In this document: positions 7,300 to 14,428 of the stretch, piece after piece | Layout of the letters: each line of letters begins with the position of its first letter | Numbering within the stretch: the stretch's first letter is position 1 | Source: an uncultured delta proteobacterium | GTDB lineage: Bacteria; Desulfobacterota; Desulfobacteria; Desulfobacterales; UBA2156 | DNA length: 64,000 nt | Reading direction: 5' to 3' | NCBI GenBank assembly: GCA_963736855.1 | Contig: CAVTQK010000015.1 | Coordinates: forward strand, 640,001 to 704,000 | Made by a program: the position numbers and the translations under genes | Notes under the pieces: generated by a model | Told to the model about the DNA's origin: nothing | The model's input: the letters and a program-made list of their open reading frames with translations, nothing else | The model's database searches: none

Positions 7300-8115
7300 T
7301 CATCTCCAAATTTGTTGAAAAAAATTATAACAGCCATGAATTTCGGCAATAAAGTCAAGTTTCTTCCAATAATTATGTACGGATACCCTGTGCAAATCGT
7401 GAAAATCGATATTGCTTAATTTAATAATTCCTCTAAAGCAATTGAAAGAATAATCAAAATTATTCATAACAAACTCTTTAAGAGCTTTATTATAGCTATC
7501 CTTCCCACCAAAGGGATAGGCAAAGGTCTTGACGGTAATTCCAGTCTCCTTTTCTATATCAGCCTTTGACTGAGCAATTTCTTTTTTGGCAGCGTCAATA
7601 TCAATTGATGATAAAAAAGGGTGGGTTTGCGTATGGGCACCGATTAAGTGCCCTGCTTTAAGAAGTTTCCTTGTATGATCCCATGTCATCATTGGATATT
7701 TAACACCAAAGTTGGAGTATAGATAAGGCGAGTAATGTTGATCAAGGAATGAAGTGGTTATAAAAAAACACGCAGGGATTTTATAACGCTGAAGGATCGG
7801 AAATGCAGTCGTAAAATTGTCAAGATAACCATCGTCAAATGTCACTGCGATGTTGATTTTTCCAGGTTCGTTTTTTAGTTTTTTTAGATTATCAATTCTA
7901 ACAACAGAAAACCGGGAGGCAATATAGGACATCTGCCAGGAAAATTTTTCAATTGAAACAGAGAGGTTGCTTTGATCAATTTTGTTGCTGATACTGTGAT
8001 AAGTTAAAATTACTAAAGAAGCATGATTAAATTTATTAGAAATTGCCTTAAACGGAAGTAAGAGACCCCCTAAGACTAGCCGTAGAAAAGAATAATATAC
8101 TTCTTTATGGTTCAT
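7300..8115 (-). CDS. Polysaccharide deacetylase (CE4/NodB family)
   Basis: ILTYHSI, VTFDDGY, IGAHTQTHP and FAYPFG motifs. Confidence 0.9.
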   Translation of the reverse strand: MNHKEVYYSFLRLVLGGLLLPFKAISNKFNHASLVILTYHSISNKIDQSNLSVSIEKFSWQMSYIASRFSVVRIDNLKKLKNEPGKINIAVTFDDGYLDNFTTAFPILQRYKIPACFFITTSFLDQHYSPYLYSNFGVKYPMMTWDHTRKLLKAGHLIGAHTQTHPFLSSIDIDAAKKEIAQSKADIEKETGITVKTFAYPFGGKDSYNKALKEFVMNNFDYSFNCFRGIIKLSNIDFHDLHRVSVHNYWKKLDFIAEIHGCYNFFQQIWR

Positions 8116-8353
8116 CTGACTGAAGGAAACTTTTTGTCATGAAACGAGAAATATTGAAGATAATCGAAACCACGAACACTTGGAAAAACTAAAAAAACCA
8201 TCAATTGGTCCCGTATCGAATCCATTCTATCGAGCCATTATGTCGTAGGCACCATCGGGGAAGGCGCCGACGTCTATCCGTTGCTGCTGTATAAGTGCCT
8301 GCTCCTCCAATAATGGTTCTGGATTTCCTCTTATCCGGAACTGGAAAACCAAA

Positions 8354-8637
8354 TTCACCCGGTTAAATAAGATTTGAGTCTCCTTCTTAAAAAACATCCG
8401 GCCATGGTATGATTTTAAATATTTTTCACGCCTTGACGCGTCTTCCTGATGAATACAGGCTTCATAATAAATCAACTTCAATGGCCTCCTATCCTTGGTG
8501 GATTCCACAAGGCCTTTTTGATGCTGCTCAAATCTTTGCTTGAGGTTTTTCGAAATCCGACATAAAAATCACCGTCTTTTTCGCTTTGGAGAACGTATGT
8601 AAAAACCATCAAACCTCAAGCAATTTAACCGGGTAAA
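8354..8637. mobile_element. 284-bp element bounded by 15-bp inverted repeats and carrying only the GIY-YIG gene
   Basis: TTCACCCGGTTAAAT (8354-8368) and ATTTAACCGGGTAAA (8623-8637) are 14/15 complementary; IS5 transposase-like sequence lies on both sides. Confidence 0.65.
8355..8609 (-). CDS. Small GIY-YIG nuclease (about 84 aa), two apparent frameshifts
   Basis: Reconstructed MVFTYVLQSEKDGDFYVGF..NLKQRFEQHQKGLVESTKDRRPLKLIYYEAC...RREKYLKS...SYLTG*. Confidence 0.8.
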
Positions 8638-8944
8638 AAGAACTTCGAGAAAAAAGCCAAACCCCGGAAGGAAACTCGATAAAAACGGCAAGCCAAAAAA
8701 TTATACTCGAGATCTGGAATCCGGCTGGAATGCCAAGGATGAAAAGAATCCTCATTATGGGCTGAAAGAGCATACCTCGGTTTGAACGAAAAAAGGGTTA
8801 CATTGCACAAATCCGACCTCAAAATTTTCTGAAAAATTTTCCAAAAAGCTAAAATCCGAAATCCAGGTGATTTTTCAAACCTCTCAGCCTAAAAGAAACT
8901 GCCTCTACAGTGCCTCACAGAAATGAAATCTACGTCAAAACAAA

Positions 8945-10115
8945 TTAATAGCAATACTGCAGCATGTTTTCAGCCCAAGCCGACTCTGTTGGGAGCGGAG
9001 GGAGCGGTCTTGAAAAGAAATTTTCCCCTCGGACTCTTCTTAACATATCTATGACCGCCTGATAAAAACCTTGCTGACCATCGTGGGCAACTGTGACCCA
9101 TTCGGTATCATTTAATATCTCAACGACACCCGACTCATCACTCAACACAACACCCATTCTCCGATAGAGCGCTTCTATGGCGGGCAAGCCATACCCTTGC
9201 CGAGCCGGCATCAAGAACACATGACATTGATCATATAACTGGTTTAATATCTGGTTCGAAACAAAGCCGTGGAATCGAACCCGGTCGCTGATACCCAGGT
9301 TGCGGGCGTAGTTTTCGAGCTTTGATTTTTCCGGCCCATTTCCTACGATATTTAATCTCCAATTTTGGAATTCAGAACCACCTGAATTCCTAACCTCAGC
9401 TAACGCACCCAGAATCCAATCGATACGTTTGCTCGCCTGAAGCCGCGAAACGGACAGCAACTCAATCGGGTCATCCGGTCTGTCCGGTGCCTCATCTTAG
9501 AGGGGAACCAAAACCACCCAAATACATTACTTGGGCATCACGCCCATAGATGGCCTTCATTTCAGTCTGAAGGGCTTTTGTATTCGTAACGAACCGCTGA
9601 GCCCTCAATATTCCTCGCCTTGTTGCGAAATGCCTAATAGCCATAAATATCCTTACCCGCAATCGGGACAGCTTTGACCTACCACACGATATTTGCCCCA
9701 ATAAGCTATAAGTATCGGGTATTCTAATATGGTATGGCACATCAACCGACAATCCGGCATGGTAGGCCGATTGAATATTAAGTAGCAAGGGAGGAGGTGA
9801 CCCTTTTTTATGAAGACTATGCAGCGCCCGCCTGAGTGACAAACTTTTACTGAGAAAATTTCTCCTAGGCGTCAATTGATGAACCTGAACAGGCCACGAA
9901 GCATATTTATCGAGCCCTATATCATCGAAATAGCACAATATTGAATGAGAGCGCTCCGATTCATGTAACGCCTTAGATAAGGCCAGAATCACTCGCTCCT
10001 CCCCTCCAAATTCGATAAATTCAGGCTGAAATATTACAACATCGTCCGAGTTCGGGAACAATCTCGCAGATGCCTGTTTACTGAATAAGAACTCATGAGC
10101 AATCCTGGTGTTCAA
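8945..10115 (-). CDS. Glycosyltransferase family 4, frameshifted near 9490
   Basis: FGGEERV in the N-terminal ORF; SRLQASKRID, GNGP and QGYGLPAIEA in the C-terminal ORF. Confidence 0.8.
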
Positions 10116-10194: not shown

Positions 10195-10867
10195 GGCGTC
10201 GCCAGACACCCATAACGGCTTCATCCTGGCTGCCACTTTGCCCTGCCTCGGAACACGATACCAATTATTTCCAATATTGCACCGCTTTCTCTCGGCCGAT
10301 ACGAAATGGCCGATTATAAAGGCGTACGCCGACAAGGCATATTTTGGAGAGCCAAAACGGCGCTTTCTTCTGCACAAAACAATTCGAAGACGGCATCATG
10401 AGAAAAGATACGACGACGGCCAAGTGACTCCCTATGAGAAAGCAAGAAACAAAAAGATTTCCAAAATCCGATACATCGTTGAAACGATACTTTGGACTGA
10501 GTCATCTTCACGATCATGCCTATCGGGCAAGGTTTACTACCATCGTTAAAAATAACCTCGACTGCTAGTGCAGACAGGTTTACCCCGTTACATTCCGAAG
10601 GACTATTAACCGGGGCAGGATTCAACATAAAACGAGGATTGAGAATTCTAAAGCTGGCGTTCATATAAATACAGCAGAGGTGTGTACAAAGAATAAAATC
10701 AAAAGAATTAAACATCGAAAATGATGAAATCGAAACGAAATAGAACCGCCATCTCTTTCGGCTTGAACGAAAAATTGGTCAAACCGGATAAAACGGCAAC
10801 AAAATTTTTCTGAAAAATCTCCTAAAAAGTTAAAATCCGAAATCTGAGTAAATTTTCAAACCTTTCA
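10195..10867 (+). mobile_element. Degenerate IS5-family element relic 2 (C-terminal transposase half plus end)
   Basis: DTHNGFILA, YADKAY, RNKKISKIRYIVE and GFNIKRGLRILK fragments with stops and frameshifts; shares its terminal ~110 bp with relic 1. Confidence 0.75.
10579..10617. repeat. About 37-bp palindromic insertion related to the GIY-YIG element termini
   Basis: TTTACCCCGTTACAT-tccgaaggac-TATTAACCGGGGCA; removing 37 nt restores the transposase frame (RQV/GFNIKRG). Confidence 0.6.
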
Positions 10868-11048
10868 GATTCCGGAGGACGTTCGAGTTTGCTTTGAGGC
10901 TGTAAATAATCGTATCGGTGTCGAGCAAAAACATCACAAACCTTTTCGGAGCTTGTGGGAAGCGCGGCGTGCATTTTTAAGTTCCGAAACGATTTGCGCT
11001 GCGGTCCGGGAATCTTCCCAAGAGCCTGCGAGAGAAAGAAGGGCTTGG
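10868..11048 (-). pseudogene. vapBC-like remnant: antitoxin C-terminus and PIN-toxin N-terminus
   Basis: QALLSLAGSWEDSRTAAQIVSELKNARR...* overlaps (TGATG) with MFLLDTDTIIYSLK, a typical PIN start; truncated at the IS end. Confidence 0.7.
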
Positions 11049-11051
11049 AAA

Positions 11052-11122
11052 GACGGGAATCCCGAGCTTGCTCCAAATCTCGTTCCGCCTGACGGAACCA
11101 GTCATGTGAACGATTCGGAATA
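11052..11122 (-). pseudogene. 5' fragment of a HEPN gene, paralogous to 13769..14158
   Basis: Close DNA match to about 14089-14160 (PNRSHDWFRQAERD); start codon lost. Confidence 0.75.
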
Positions 11123-11127
11123 TGTTT

Positions 11128-11158
11128 CTCACAGAGCCCATAGAGGGCGCAGAGGGTT
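11128..11158. repeat. Tripartite 9-mer repeat, copy 1
   Basis: CTCACAGAG CCCATAGAG GGCGCAGAG GGTT. Confidence 0.85.
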
Positions 11159-11328
11159 TTTCAGATTCGCAGGCTGCGCATTACATATTCGGCCAAATCC
11201 ACTCGTGAAACATCTGGGTTTTAGGCTATCATGTCGAGATAGAGAATCGATCAAGTAGCTTCATTATAAGACGTATAACGACGATGGATCATGTTCGGGG
11301 AAAAAGGTTTTACTTTTTGCCATTCCTT
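11128..11328. repeat. Direct repeat A, copy 1 (about 200 bp)
   Basis: Similar to 12845-13044, with scattered substitutions and one indel. Confidence 0.9.
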
Positions 11329-11696
11329 ATTTCCGAAAGTTCGTTGCTCATTTTTTGAATGGCTTCTCTTAGCCTTGGGATATGGTTCGCACAGATGTCA
11401 AAAATAATTTCATGGTCAACATGCTCGTAGTGGTGAGAAACCAGATCTCGAAACCGTGCAATCTTATCCCATTCGATCTCAGCATAACGGTTTAAAAATG
11501 GTAAATCCTTCTTCTGTATTTTCTTCACCGACTCACCGATGATTTGGAGCCTCATTGAAATTGCATCCAACAGTGTGACCCCATCCGATGTTGACACAAA
11601 ATCTCCAGATTCAGCGATCTTTGAAAATCGTTCCTGCACAAGGCTGATTGAGTCGAGCAAAACATCCAGAATCTCAACAATTTCATCTTCAGACAT
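11310..11696 (-). CDS. HepT-like DUF86 HEPN ribonuclease toxin
   Basis: LQIIGE and W..IARFRDLVSHHY (RX4HXY motif); overlaps the upstream MNT gene. Confidence 0.9.
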   Translation of the reverse strand: MSEDEIVEILDVLLDSISLVQERFSKIAESGDFVSTSDGVTLLDAISMRLQIIGESVKKIQKKDLPFLNRYAEIEWDKIARFRDLVSHHYEHVDHEIIFDICANHIPRLREAIQKMSNELSEIRNGKK

Positions 11697-11979
11697 AGTG
11701 GATATCTCTCTCAATTCGTTTTAAAAAGCGTTCGCTCAGCCCCTTCCTCTTACGAATTAGCTCGACCGGTTTCCCCAATCTGTTTTCGAGATATATATGC
11801 AGTCCGGCTAGGTAATCAAAACGAGCTTCGGTTAGTTCAACAAGCAAATCGATATCGCTATCGGGTTGGTGTGTTTCTTTCGCGTGGGAACCGAAAAGCC
11901 CGATGGCCAAGAGACCGTATTTATTCCTAAGATATTGCTTTTCTGAACGTAAAATATCCAATATTTCTTTGCTGGTCAT
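11689..11979 (-). CDS. MntA-like minimal nucleotidyltransferase antitoxin
   Basis: GLFGS...DSDIDLLVE (GSX10DXD); 96 aa. Confidence 0.9.
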   Translation of the reverse strand: MTSKEILDILRSEKQYLRNKYGLLAIGLFGSHAKETHQPDSDIDLLVELTEARFDYLAGLHIYLENRLGKPVELIRKRKGLSERFLKRIERDIHYV

Positions 11980-12002
11980 GATTTTTTTCGTAAGAGGGGC
12001 AT

Positions 12003-12033
12003 CTCACAGAGTTCGCAGAGGGCGCAGAGGGTT
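12003..12033. repeat. Tripartite 9-mer repeat, copy 2
   Basis: CTCACAGAG TTCGCAGAG GGCGCAGAG GGTT. Confidence 0.85.
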
Positions 12034-12188
12034 CAAGTGTTTGGAGAGAATCGATATCCTTATTTCTTCGACAAAGAAAGGTTTCGGAAATGCGTGTTCC
12101 ATTCTTTCAGGAGTCCTTTATTGTCGATTTTTTCCATCAGGACCCTGAAATCGATTTGATCTCCGGAGAGCTCAAGGATACCGCCGAT
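12003..12188. repeat. Direct repeat B, copy 1 (186 bp)
   Basis: Appears identical to 14165-14350 beyond the 9-mer motif. Confidence 0.9.
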
Positions 12189-12638
12189 ATCGTTTAAATG
12201 TTTTTCTGAACCGCCTTCATGATAATATTCCAGCTTGCGCAGAATAACATATTCAATGGGGGCGATCCAGATCGATTCCCCTTCAAAACGGATCTCTTTG
12301 CGCTTGTTGAGTGCCCACTGGTGAAGCTTGCTGTTGCCCATTGGGTAAATGTCGGCCTTGAAACCCGTTGTATGATGAATCAGGTTGAAGTGACCGCCTG
12401 ATGGCCTTGAAATTTCGATTTTGATGATTTCCGGTGGCGGGCAATAAAATTCTGAAAGAGGAAAGACTTCGGTAAAGCTTCCGATATTAAAGGGTTCCAG
12501 ATCGATCACAAGATCGAGGTCATGGGTTAAGCGGGGTTTACCGTATATAATGGACGCCATTGCCCCGGTGACCATGTAGCGAATTCTCAATTGGTTGAAC
12601 CGGGAGATGAATATTTTCAGAAGATCAAGTTCGGGCAT
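12060..12638 (-). CDS. Nucleotidyltransferase-fold protein, TA-like
   Basis: YMVTGAMAS..YGKPRLTHDLDLV N-terminal motif; KLEYY..GGSEKHLND. Confidence 0.7.
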   Translation of the reverse strand: MPELDLLKIFISRFNQLRIRYMVTGAMASIIYGKPRLTHDLDLVIDLEPFNIGSFTEVFPLSEFYCPPPEIIKIEISRPSGGHFNLIHHTTGFKADIYPMGNSKLHQWALNKRKEIRFEGESIWIAPIEYVILRKLEYYHEGGSEKHLNDIGGILELSGDQIDFRVLMEKIDNKGLLKEWNTHFRNLSLSKK

Positions 12639-12816
12639 AGAGGAATATTTCCTTGACCTTGTTTTGGATTTGTTCGTCCGTCCAATCGGGATGCTGCAGA
12701 CGCAACCCCGCTTCTTTCAGTTTATGTGCACAAGAATACAGATCCAGAAAAAGCCTTAGTTTTTGTTCCGGATTTAATTTTTTTAGGAAATCATTTTGAG
12801 ATGGATTTTCTGTCAT
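12625..12816 (-). CDS. Small partner protein (about 63 aa) of the downstream nucleotidyltransferase
   Basis: PEQKLR...AGLRLQHPDWTDEQI; overlaps the next gene's start. Confidence 0.65.
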   Translation of the reverse strand: MTENPSQNDFLKKLNPEQKLRLFLDLYSCAHKLKEAGLRLQHPDWTDEQIQNKVKEIFLYART

Positions 12817-12844
12817 TCCAATGGCTCTAATTTTTCTTCGGTCC

Positions 12845-12875
12845 CTCATAGAGTTCACAGAGGACGCAGAGGGTT
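12845..12875. repeat. Tripartite 9-mer repeat, copy 3
   Basis: CTCATAGAG TTCACAGAG GACGCAGAG GGTT. Confidence 0.85.
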
Positions 12876-13044
12876 TTTCAGATTCGCAGGCTGCGCATTA
12901 CACATTCGGCCAAATCCACTCGTGAAACATCTGGGCTCAGGCTATCGCGTCGGGATAGTGAATCGATCAAGTAGCTTCACTATAAGATGTAGAACGACGA
13001 TGGATTATGTTCGGAGAAAAAGGTTTTACTTTTTGCCATTCCTT
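12845..13044. repeat. Direct repeat A, copy 2
   Basis: Matches 11128-11328 and includes the last codons (RNGKK*) of the DUF86 gene. Confidence 0.9.
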
Positions 13045-13061
13045 TGATGTGTTCTCCGCGT

Positions 13062-13388
13062 TCACGACCTGTGTTTATTCGGGTTTAATCCCTTTGTTGA
13101 AAATTTAAGCAACAAAACCGACTCTCGCGCTTTTTCCACCAAGCGGACTTTTTCTGGCCAAGTGAGCGCACGGAGGTTTTTTTGCCGGAGGGCATACCGA
13201 TTCAGCAAAAACGATATTTCATTTAATACATAAAGCCCTTCTGACTCTGGCACCCCAACCAAAACATCAATATCCAAAGTTGCTACCGGTTCGGCATACC
13301 GTATCTGCGCCATTGCGCCAAATATGGCGTAATTGATGATCACCTCCTTCTTGACCATCTCATTCAGCAATTCAGCTAGTTCTTTCAC
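13062..13388 (-). pseudogene. Probable deletion fusion: nucleotidyltransferase N-terminus joined to a small partner protein
   Basis: YAIFGAMAQIRYAEPVATLDIDVLV (NTase-like start) followed after about 58 aa by unrelated RQKNLRALTWPEKVR; too short for a full NTase of this type. Confidence 0.5.
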
Positions 13389-13446
13389 ATCACCTCTCTT
13401 TAAGAAAGATAGGTATTGCGATTAAAGGTATCTTGCTGTCTATTTA

Positions 13447-13812
13447 TCACTGGTCACGCTCATAGACCCAGTTTACCTCTTCAAGCAGCATTCGGCTGAA
13501 GCGAGTGTTCGGATCCATTGCTTTCCACTCTGAAAGGGTATAGACTAGCACATCTGCAGGAACCGGCAGCTCGGAAGTGTCCCAGGCGATCCCTCGGCGC
13601 ACAAAAGGTTCATTGGACTTTTCCACAATAATAATGAGATCCAGGTCGCTTCCCACGCCCCAGTCACTTCGTGCCAAAGAGCCAAAATACCCGATACGTA
13701 CCACTTCGGGTCTCATGGCAGCGACCTCTGCCGCCCAAGTCTCAAGGCGGCGCACCACTGTATCTTGATCAGGCCATCGCATTACGGACGAAGTCAAGGA
13801 TCTCACCGGCAT
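13447..13812 (-). CDS. Minimal nucleotidyltransferase (MNT) protein
   Basis: GYFGSLARSDWGVGSDLDLII and PADVLVYT; start at MPVRSL. Confidence 0.85.
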   Translation of the reverse strand: MPVRSLTSSVMRWPDQDTVVRRLETWAAEVAAMRPEVVRIGYFGSLARSDWGVGSDLDLIIIVEKSNEPFVRRGIAWDTSELPVPADVLVYTLSEWKAMDPNTRFSRMLLEEVNWVYERDQ

Positions 13813-14158
13813 ATTGGATCGCCTCTTTACTTTGTAAAGGTCCATAATGTTCAAAGGGCGCCCCTTCCGGATGCCCGTTTGGGTATCGTGGCGGAATGTA
13901 ATAGGCATCGAGAACCCGGCCTTTCTCGATAAGATCTTCAGGGATGCGGATTGTTTTCGGCAGTTCGATCAGAAGTTTGGCGATCACGTGGCCCCACGCC
14001 TCTTGGCCCAACTTCAGATGAAGCGCTTTCACCACCTTTTCCGCTGACTGCTGAGCCGCAAAACATGCCCATTCATGCCGGCCGGAAAGACGAGAATCCC
14101 TGGCCTGGTCTAAATCCCGTTCCGCCTGACGGAACCAATCATGTGAACGATTCGGCAT
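13769..14158 (-). CDS. HEPN domain protein
   Basis: WFRQAERDL, ACFAAQQSAEK, WGH and YYIPPRYP. Confidence 0.9.
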   Translation of the reverse strand: MPNRSHDWFRQAERDLDQARDSRLSGRHEWACFAAQQSAEKVVKALHLKLGQEAWGHVIAKLLIELPKTIRIPEDLIEKGRVLDAYYIPPRYPNGHPEGAPFEHYGPLQSKEAIQYAGEILDFVRNAMA

Positions 14159-14164
14159 GTGTTC

Positions 14165-14195
14165 CTCACAGAGCGCGCAGAGGGCGCAGAGGGTT
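14165..14195. repeat. Tripartite 9-mer repeat, copy 4
   Basis: CTCACAGAG CGCGCAGAG GGCGCAGAG GGTT. Confidence 0.85.
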
Positions 14196-14350
14196 CAAGT
14201 GTTTGGAGAGAATCGATATCCTTATTTCTTCGACAAAGAAAGGTTTCGGAAATGCGTGTTCCATTCTTTCAGGAGTCCTTTATTGTCGATTTTTTCCATC
14301 AGGACCCTGAAATCGATTTGATCTCCGGAGAGCTCAAGGATACCGCCGAT
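14165..14350. repeat. Direct repeat B, copy 2, carrying an orphan 3' end of gene 12060..12638
   Basis: Matches 12003-12188. Confidence 0.9.
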
Positions 14351-14428
14351 TTTGAATAGATTCCAATACCGATGTCACTAAGACCTCGTTCCAAGTAAAT
14401 AACAAGGGACTTTTGAAATTTGATTACC

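Follow-up and report, generated by a model that had tools for sequence, protein, structure and literature searches.

The window, by which we mean the whole 64,000-nt stretch of DNA that was analysed, carries a 284-bp unit made up of a broken GIY-YIG nuclease gene between 15-nt inverted repeats, lodged in an IS5-like transposase. The features are listed by position; helices A and B are predicted.

8181-8353, plus strand: upstream remnant of the IS5-like transposase, ending ...ELENQI; 75% identity to a paralogue on contig C21; empty alleles in L101 and L102
8354-8637, minus strand: whole element of 284 bp, with a 276-bp core running CCC...GGG between two 4-nt outer ends
8354-8368, minus strand: terminal repeat encoding the last codons and stop (YLTG*)
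8355-8609, minus strand: single-domain GIY-YIG gene, broken; 84 codons in intact relatives
8369-8378, minus strand: helix B, second strand; codes L-K-S, directly before the terminal repeat
8527-8536, minus strand: helix B, first strand; codes R-F-E, directly after helix A
8537-8548, minus strand: helix A, second strand; codes K-N-L-K-Q
8611-8622, minus strand: helix A, first strand; leader, includes GAGG
8623-8637, minus strand: terminal repeat 5' of the gene and first arm of the terminal stem; covaries with the other arm
8638-8782, plus strand: IS5-like transposase remnant, resuming KELR...; 86% identity to the C21 paralogue
10579-10619, no strand assigned: gene-less hairpin with degenerate ends (core 10583-10615), inserted where a second IS5-like piece encodes the tail of the transposase

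The initial annotation had described a GIY-YIG gene between 15-bp inverted repeats, and the arms, the gene and the 284-bp limits were all borne out. The arms are 93% complementary and 254 nt apart, and the exact 15-mer occurs at no place beyond these two in the whole 3.9-Mb genome; the boundaries of the element are the points where conservation among homologues stops. The gene runs from an ATG at 8609 to a TGA at 8355, spread over two frames. Its ATG lies inside the repeat as annotated, at a depth of 13 nt rather than 14, and its stop falls within the 8354-8368 arm, which does encode YLTG. The order repeat, ribosome-binding site, gene, repeat describes the window copy correctly and cannot be extended to the family, since GAGG is not conserved among homologues, many of which have an A+T leader.

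Two frameshifts break the gene, which is one base short near 8552 and has one base too many near 8391. The pieces still contain the conserved Tyr, Tyr-x-Gly, Arg, His and Glu positions, and the middle piece gives a weak match to Pfam GIY-YIG (E 0.003; intact homologues reach 1.6e-18 and 3.5e-16). A contig of run X1, seemingly from another strain, differs at 24 places and covers 7900-9690, the entire unit included; the 8354 junction is bridged by contigs of X2 and X3, two further studies. On this evidence neither the unit nor the frameshift at 8391 seems due to misassembly. The extra base at 8391 is present in the contigs of X1, X2 and X4, and the X1 contig retains the frameshifted length near 8552. 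Because contigs of other strains keep the frameshifts, sequencing error is unlikely, and of the two explanations offered in the initial annotation they look like decay. The window copy is dead; it serves to point to the intact copies L074, L103, L133 and L135 and to illustrate an adjacent deletion.

The two flanks match one and the same IS5-like paralogue, that on C21, so that a single transposase was interrupted, as had been supposed. An uninterrupted relative scored best against the NCBIfam IS5 model NF033581, under the whole-protein cut-off because that relative is in two pieces. Alleles empty at the IS5 site exist elsewhere (L101, L102 and C21); in the contigs of the four runs, neither an empty allele of this exact locus nor an excised or circular form was found. 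The missing stretch of transposase is likewise real: about 230 bp (232 nt between anchors) are absent, flush with the element end. The same IS5 codon holds intact copies in two other genomes (L074 and L133), where the transposase reads straight on past the element; the deletion is accordingly peculiar to the window copy. The three elements at this codon are 73-79% alike and their flanks 72-80%; judging by these values, the shared codon may reflect one old insertion or repeated targeting. We also considered a MITE of the host IS5 and rejected it, as the IS5 ends seen do not resemble those of the element.

The IS5-like transposase is divided between 8181-8782 and 10215-10867, within a polysaccharide gene cluster, and two 111-bp direct repeats (76%) of its 3' end, at 8777-8887 and 10758-10868, bracket two glycosyltransferase genes. 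Positions 11047-14361 hold HEPN/MNT and AbiEii-like/Rv0078B-like toxin-antitoxin pairs with 90-200-bp direct repeats (88-96%) between them, resembling a small cassette array.

To examine the family, we used the middle 61 residues of the protein as query, found 132 relatives in the genome collection and kept the best 80 of these 132 (64-81% identical). Named records among the best 80 of 132 come from Patescibacteria, deltaproteobacteria, Bacteroidota, Scalindua and Cloacimonetes. The initial annotation had named homologous genes without the repeats, or flanks that are not one interrupted transposase, as grounds for rejecting its view, and it withstood both checks. Both ends were present at 74 of the best 80 of 132 loci, the downstream end only at two and neither at four; within this count L061 was assigned a false left end, and L096 is composite. 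An inverted-repeat score of at least 10 was found at 74 of the best 80 of 132 loci, compared with 3 of 203 shifted control windows, which excludes a chance repeat. The arms change together. Where the arms vary most, complementarity holds in 71 of 73 pairs (40.9 by permutation), and it is kept even where YLTG thereby becomes YFTG. The 73 loci fall into 49 flank clusters.

A DNA pattern alone, run against 401 genomes of the phylum, gave eight matches in six genomes; all four single end-pairs (272-302 bp) carry a GIY-YIG gene, and the other four matches are chains of short hairpins. Of 90 stretches of 68-1500 bp that lie between such ends in the sequence examined, 84 carry the gene, a proportion biased by most loci having been fetched by gene, and the remaining six measure 69-118 bp. 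No DDE transposase lies between ends at 68-1500 bp in the source genome or the loci examined. A loose half-site pattern gave 220 matches against about 206 expected; viral contigs gave no match at three long spacings and two short hairpins, and plasmids no protein match at 1e-10.

Sequence comparison indicates that the gene is under purifying selection, with a median dN/dS of 0.10, that is about 0.1 (683 unsaturated of 1891 pairs, 62 genes). Within about 2 kb, no neighbouring gene family is shared by more than 4 of 72 loci. With a profile, 40 protein clusters were retrieved at E 1e-30 and as many as 3104 at 1e-10. Self-complementary ends of other sequence were found in 35 of 61 looser relatives, and their grouping roughly follows the protein tree, which has 84 columns and in which many forks are open. 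The genome G115 holds five full copies at five sites, 70-82% alike, plus 37 gene-less hairpins. We found no near-identical copies at different sites: the most similar pairs share a site, and the G115 copies are at most 82% alike, so there is no sign of recent activity.

Some loci have peculiarities of their own. The L068 element sits in another GIY-YIG gene, the gene of the L096 element holds a short derivative, and in L041 and L047 a hairpin abuts a full element. In Patescibacteria-like records (L025, L035, L033, L042, L079 and others), many copies end right before a host ATG and thus land at gene starts. A separate small GIY-YIG clade (L006, L007, L008, L019, L110, L115, L120 and L121) has copies of a tRNA 3' half on both sides, and L128 and L132 contain GIY-YIG-like domains in frame in long proteins that, by eye, resemble type I restriction specificity subunits.

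The initial annotation had left open whether the unit is an autonomous element or a MITE that captured the gene. Autonomy is the better fit because the gene is under purifying selection, has no recurring partner gene and is the cargo of all four end-pairs found by pattern. The captured form fared less well, and it survives as the proposal that a MITE- or REP-like hairpin is moved by a transposase encoded elsewhere, either HUH/RAYT or a DDE enzyme such as that of IS982, with the nuclease as cargo retained for some other function, for example defence. The ends of IS982 start with ACCC. This proposal, which we regard as unlikely, does not sit easily with the two gene-content counts above, the second of which carries its bias here too, or with end sequences that differ among nuclease clades yet remain self-complementary. 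Across 72 loci no HUH (Y1) transposase is a constant neighbour, and a crude regular expression found no HUH-like motif in 667 neighbouring frames.

Insertion sites were delimited with host genes. A plain open-frame test over excised junctions did not discriminate (10-17 matches at every offset), and a host-homologue test was used in its place. A host homologue runs across the junction at 13 of about 77 sites tested, with a net gain of the core plus 4 nt in eight, plus 5 in four and plus 2 in one; the split host genes include PDDEXK_3, 23S-IVP four-helix, ORF6N and Bro-N. Target-site duplication was not detected: the outer 4-mers are equal in 1 of 72 loci, no peak appears at 2-9 nt, and the empty alleles agree. 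In the empty alleles compared, the 4-nt target matches neither of the outer 4-mers; it therefore seems to be overwritten, and the 284-bp limits would comprise the full unit. Comparison of occupied and empty sequences thus shows a unit inserted at many unrelated sites, often within genes, leaving no target duplication, and on this comparative footing the element is mobile. HUH elements also insert next to a 4-mer without duplication, a resemblance that favours movement of the hairpin by such an enzyme.

The same sites bear on a homing-type process, in which the nuclease would cut empty double-stranded alleles and repair would copy the element in, the fold protecting or regulating rather than serving as substrate. 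Sites and hosts do recur, with the same IS5 codon used in three genomes and with four PDDEXK_3 and nine four-helix flanks, and the small target losses and the adjacent deletion fit break repair. However, the targets at 49 flank types have hardly more than a 4-mer in common, and the three IS5 copies could go back to a single old insertion. Gene-less hairpins bearing these ends have spread as well, and the protein, which is without a separate DNA-binding domain, has a fold nearer Slx1 than I-TevI. We therefore consider homing improbable, slightly more so than transport as cargo.

The gene-less hairpins form a dispersed family. Hairpins that measure 30-57 bp and share the element's ends were found in 49 of the 151 genomes examined within the order, with at most 37 copies in a genome; a reversed pattern, used as control, was found in 1 of 151. 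Three in the source genome lie in IS91-like remnants (Y2_Tnp), each adding 43 nt, with empty alleles found; by such comparison, the hairpins share the element's ends and insert in the same way. Longer hairpins have two small inner arms in 10 of 14 cases (by a strict split, with three doubtful), and several gene-less copies have C-GNA-G triloops (7 of 20 arms), a motif that forms a DNA mini-hairpin. The window hairpin at 10579-10619, about 2 kb from the element, is absent from the C21 paralogue and from the X2 contig and on its own folds weakly (z -0.65 and -1.33). More degenerate family hairpins, with inner GCGAAG/CCGAAGG loops, lie just outside the window (contig C15 of the source genome G000, at 630072, 630912, 632234 and 298413).

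There is a hint that gene and hairpins occur together. All six genomes with a close gene have at least three hairpins, against 21 of the 145 in which no close gene was found (hand count); overall co-occurrence is 6 of 6 against 43 of 145 (p 0.0009), with kin that are not independent and two of the six belonging to a sister end type. The hairpin-rich genomes among the 145 are a point for the view of the nuclease as cargo; one of them, G093, is a single contig, 92% complete, with 16 hairpins.

As single-stranded DNA, the window copy has a predicted fold (z -4.4) of one terminal stem plus two inner helices, the leader pairing with the N-L-K codons and the R-F-E codons with the L-K-S codons that adjoin the terminal repeat. 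Neither this three-way junction nor the gene-less derivatives figured in the initial annotation. Across 58 homologues and the window, 97.6% of 1882 cells are paired in this three-helix structure, against 24-50% in slid controls, and 16 of 32 pairs show compensatory change on both sides, a number reached in none of 500 shuffles. The alignment omits 22 of the best 80 of 132 homologues, an omission that favours the covariation result. Of these 22, six lack an end, two have longer tails, three are near-duplicates and nine show leader offsets, most of these nine pairing by eye; the other two are L061 and L096. In 54 of 59 sequences the junction has no unpaired base, and synonymous sites are nearly fixed in the helices and saturated elsewhere. 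Comparison thus shows that the ends and the two internal helices covary. The coding sequence itself contains the repeat and the two helices, which vary along with it, and this argues further against the nuclease being mere cargo. The perfect junction is found in 5 of 33 looser repeat-bounded relatives, so that in its strict form it is, on the sequences compared, clade-specific; in L218, a copy found by pattern, the minimum-energy fold is not the junction.

Might the junction instead be an mRNA fold, serving translation control or as an RNA intermediate, with movement by a reverse transcriptase in trans? Helix A sequesters the ribosome-binding site and adjoins the start codon, so part of the pairing could act in mRNA. 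Mismatches in the helices, however, show no excess of G.U (G.T in the DNA) over A.C, at 13 and 15, and the asymmetric outer 4-mer pair occurs in either polarity (gene strand 14 of 72, other strand 25 of 72); with mismatches and polarity so distributed, DNA fits better than mRNA. The triloops of the gene-less copies point the same way, and the element has no Rfam match. Of the readings weighed here, an RNA-level one appears the least likely.

The protein measures 84-87 aa, with Pfam GIY-YIG spanning residues 1-71 as its single domain. A model of an intact homologue (pLDDT 93) has UPF0213 (1zg2), At-HIGLE and Slx1 as its nearest folds and comes closer to Slx1 than to I-TevI (E 7e-4 to 2e-2 vs 0.23); the predicted fold is thus Slx1-like. 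UPF0213 is the best match by both sequence and fold, and scores against TIGR01453 are 16-21, the cut-off being 56. To our knowledge, GIY-YIG domains have no joining step, which speaks for a transposase elsewhere. They are described as hydrolysing DNA (PMC3664794), and Slx1 as cutting branched DNA, that is flaps, forks and junctions (PMC3827899).

Taken together, we read the unit as a decayed element of about 285 bp that carries a GIY-YIG gene only, is predicted to form a single-stranded three-way junction and was likely spread by its own nuclease and host repair, and we give this reading a probability of about 0.65. Mobilisation by the nuclease is inferred from the pattern described. The junction would form when either strand is single, as at a replication fork or in incoming DNA; the Slx1-like protein would recognise the terminal stem and branch point and nick near the stem base. 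Since GIY-YIG enzymes are hydrolytic, we propose that joining is left to host polymerase and ligase, which would attach the cut or copied strand at a target of 3-6 nt, leaving that target overwritten and not duplicated. Gene-less hairpins would borrow the nuclease in trans. In the window, the element would have landed in the IS5-like transposase; some 230 bp would later have been lost at the element's upstream end, through a cut or through inaccurate repair, and the two frameshifts would thereafter have inactivated the gene.

The family is apparently undescribed in print; among the papers within reach of the search, only the Ssn study came close. We lean, with somewhat less assurance than for the reading just given, towards a new class of transposable element, in which 284 bp encode an 84-residue Slx1-like nuclease and its own branched single-stranded DNA substrate in the same bases, without transposase joining chemistry, and which seeds hairpins across many uncultured phyla. 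If true, it would be among the smallest autonomous transposable elements, assign a function to some of the many small stand-alone GIY-YIG genes, account for the dispersed hairpin family of this bacterial order and add a transposition route that works by hydrolytic nuclease and host repair. The element is also a clear case of protein sequence and DNA structure co-evolving in the same bases.

Several known systems share parts of this design. Like insertion sequences and MITEs, the element is a unit bounded by terminal inverted repeats with autonomous and gene-less forms and an adjacent deletion; it differs in its lack of target duplication, in its 284-bp length, in its internal junction and, for ends 68-1500 bp apart in the source genome and the loci examined, in having no DDE transposase between them. 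With REP/REPIN-RAYT and IS200/IS605 it shares a likely single-stranded hairpin substrate, the lack of duplication and dispersed small palindromes (PMC2817692, PMC3116915, PMC3733652), whereas its enzyme is GIY-YIG and not HUH, its gene lies inside the palindrome and its ends are not GTAG- or CGTC-tagged as described for those systems. Free-standing GIY-YIG homing endonucleases have a separate DNA-binding domain and one cognate site, in contrast to 84 aa and 49 flank types here. The prokaryotic stand-alone Slx1-like UPF0213 proteins (PDB 1zg2, 1ywl) are similar in being minimal GIY-YIG domains nearest to the Slx1 lineage. Dunin-Horkawicz et al. (2006, PMC1564403) treat UPF0213/Slx1-like proteins as ancestral and repair-type and report one recent Slx1-like insertion into an HsdR gene, with DNA ends or an element family not described in the sections consulted.

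Closest among published systems are the Ssn nucleases, which act site-specifically on ssDNA and have NTS/SRM hairpins (Chenal et al. 2025, PMC11893778). They likewise combine a small single-domain GIY-YIG gene, for a protein of about 90 residues, with hairpin repeats that also occur alone. In the arrangement described there, each SRM is a whole hairpin beside the gene, whereas here a single stem is split, with one half on either side of the gene and both overlapping its codons. The SRM motif was found in none of the flanks of the best 80 of 132 homologues and nowhere in the window (positive control L010, 2+1), and the protein is on a long branch from the SRM-flanked L010 (84-column tree rooted on L010, used as a proxy for membership in the CDD clade cd10448). 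The Ssn authors noted that NTS-ssnA-NTS looks like an insertion sequence and proposed a domesticated mobile element (PMC11893778). The present element makes their proposal for units of nuclease plus hairpin directly testable, with a short protein and oligonucleotides as substrates. Mobility is a proposal there, whereas here insertions into genes are evident.
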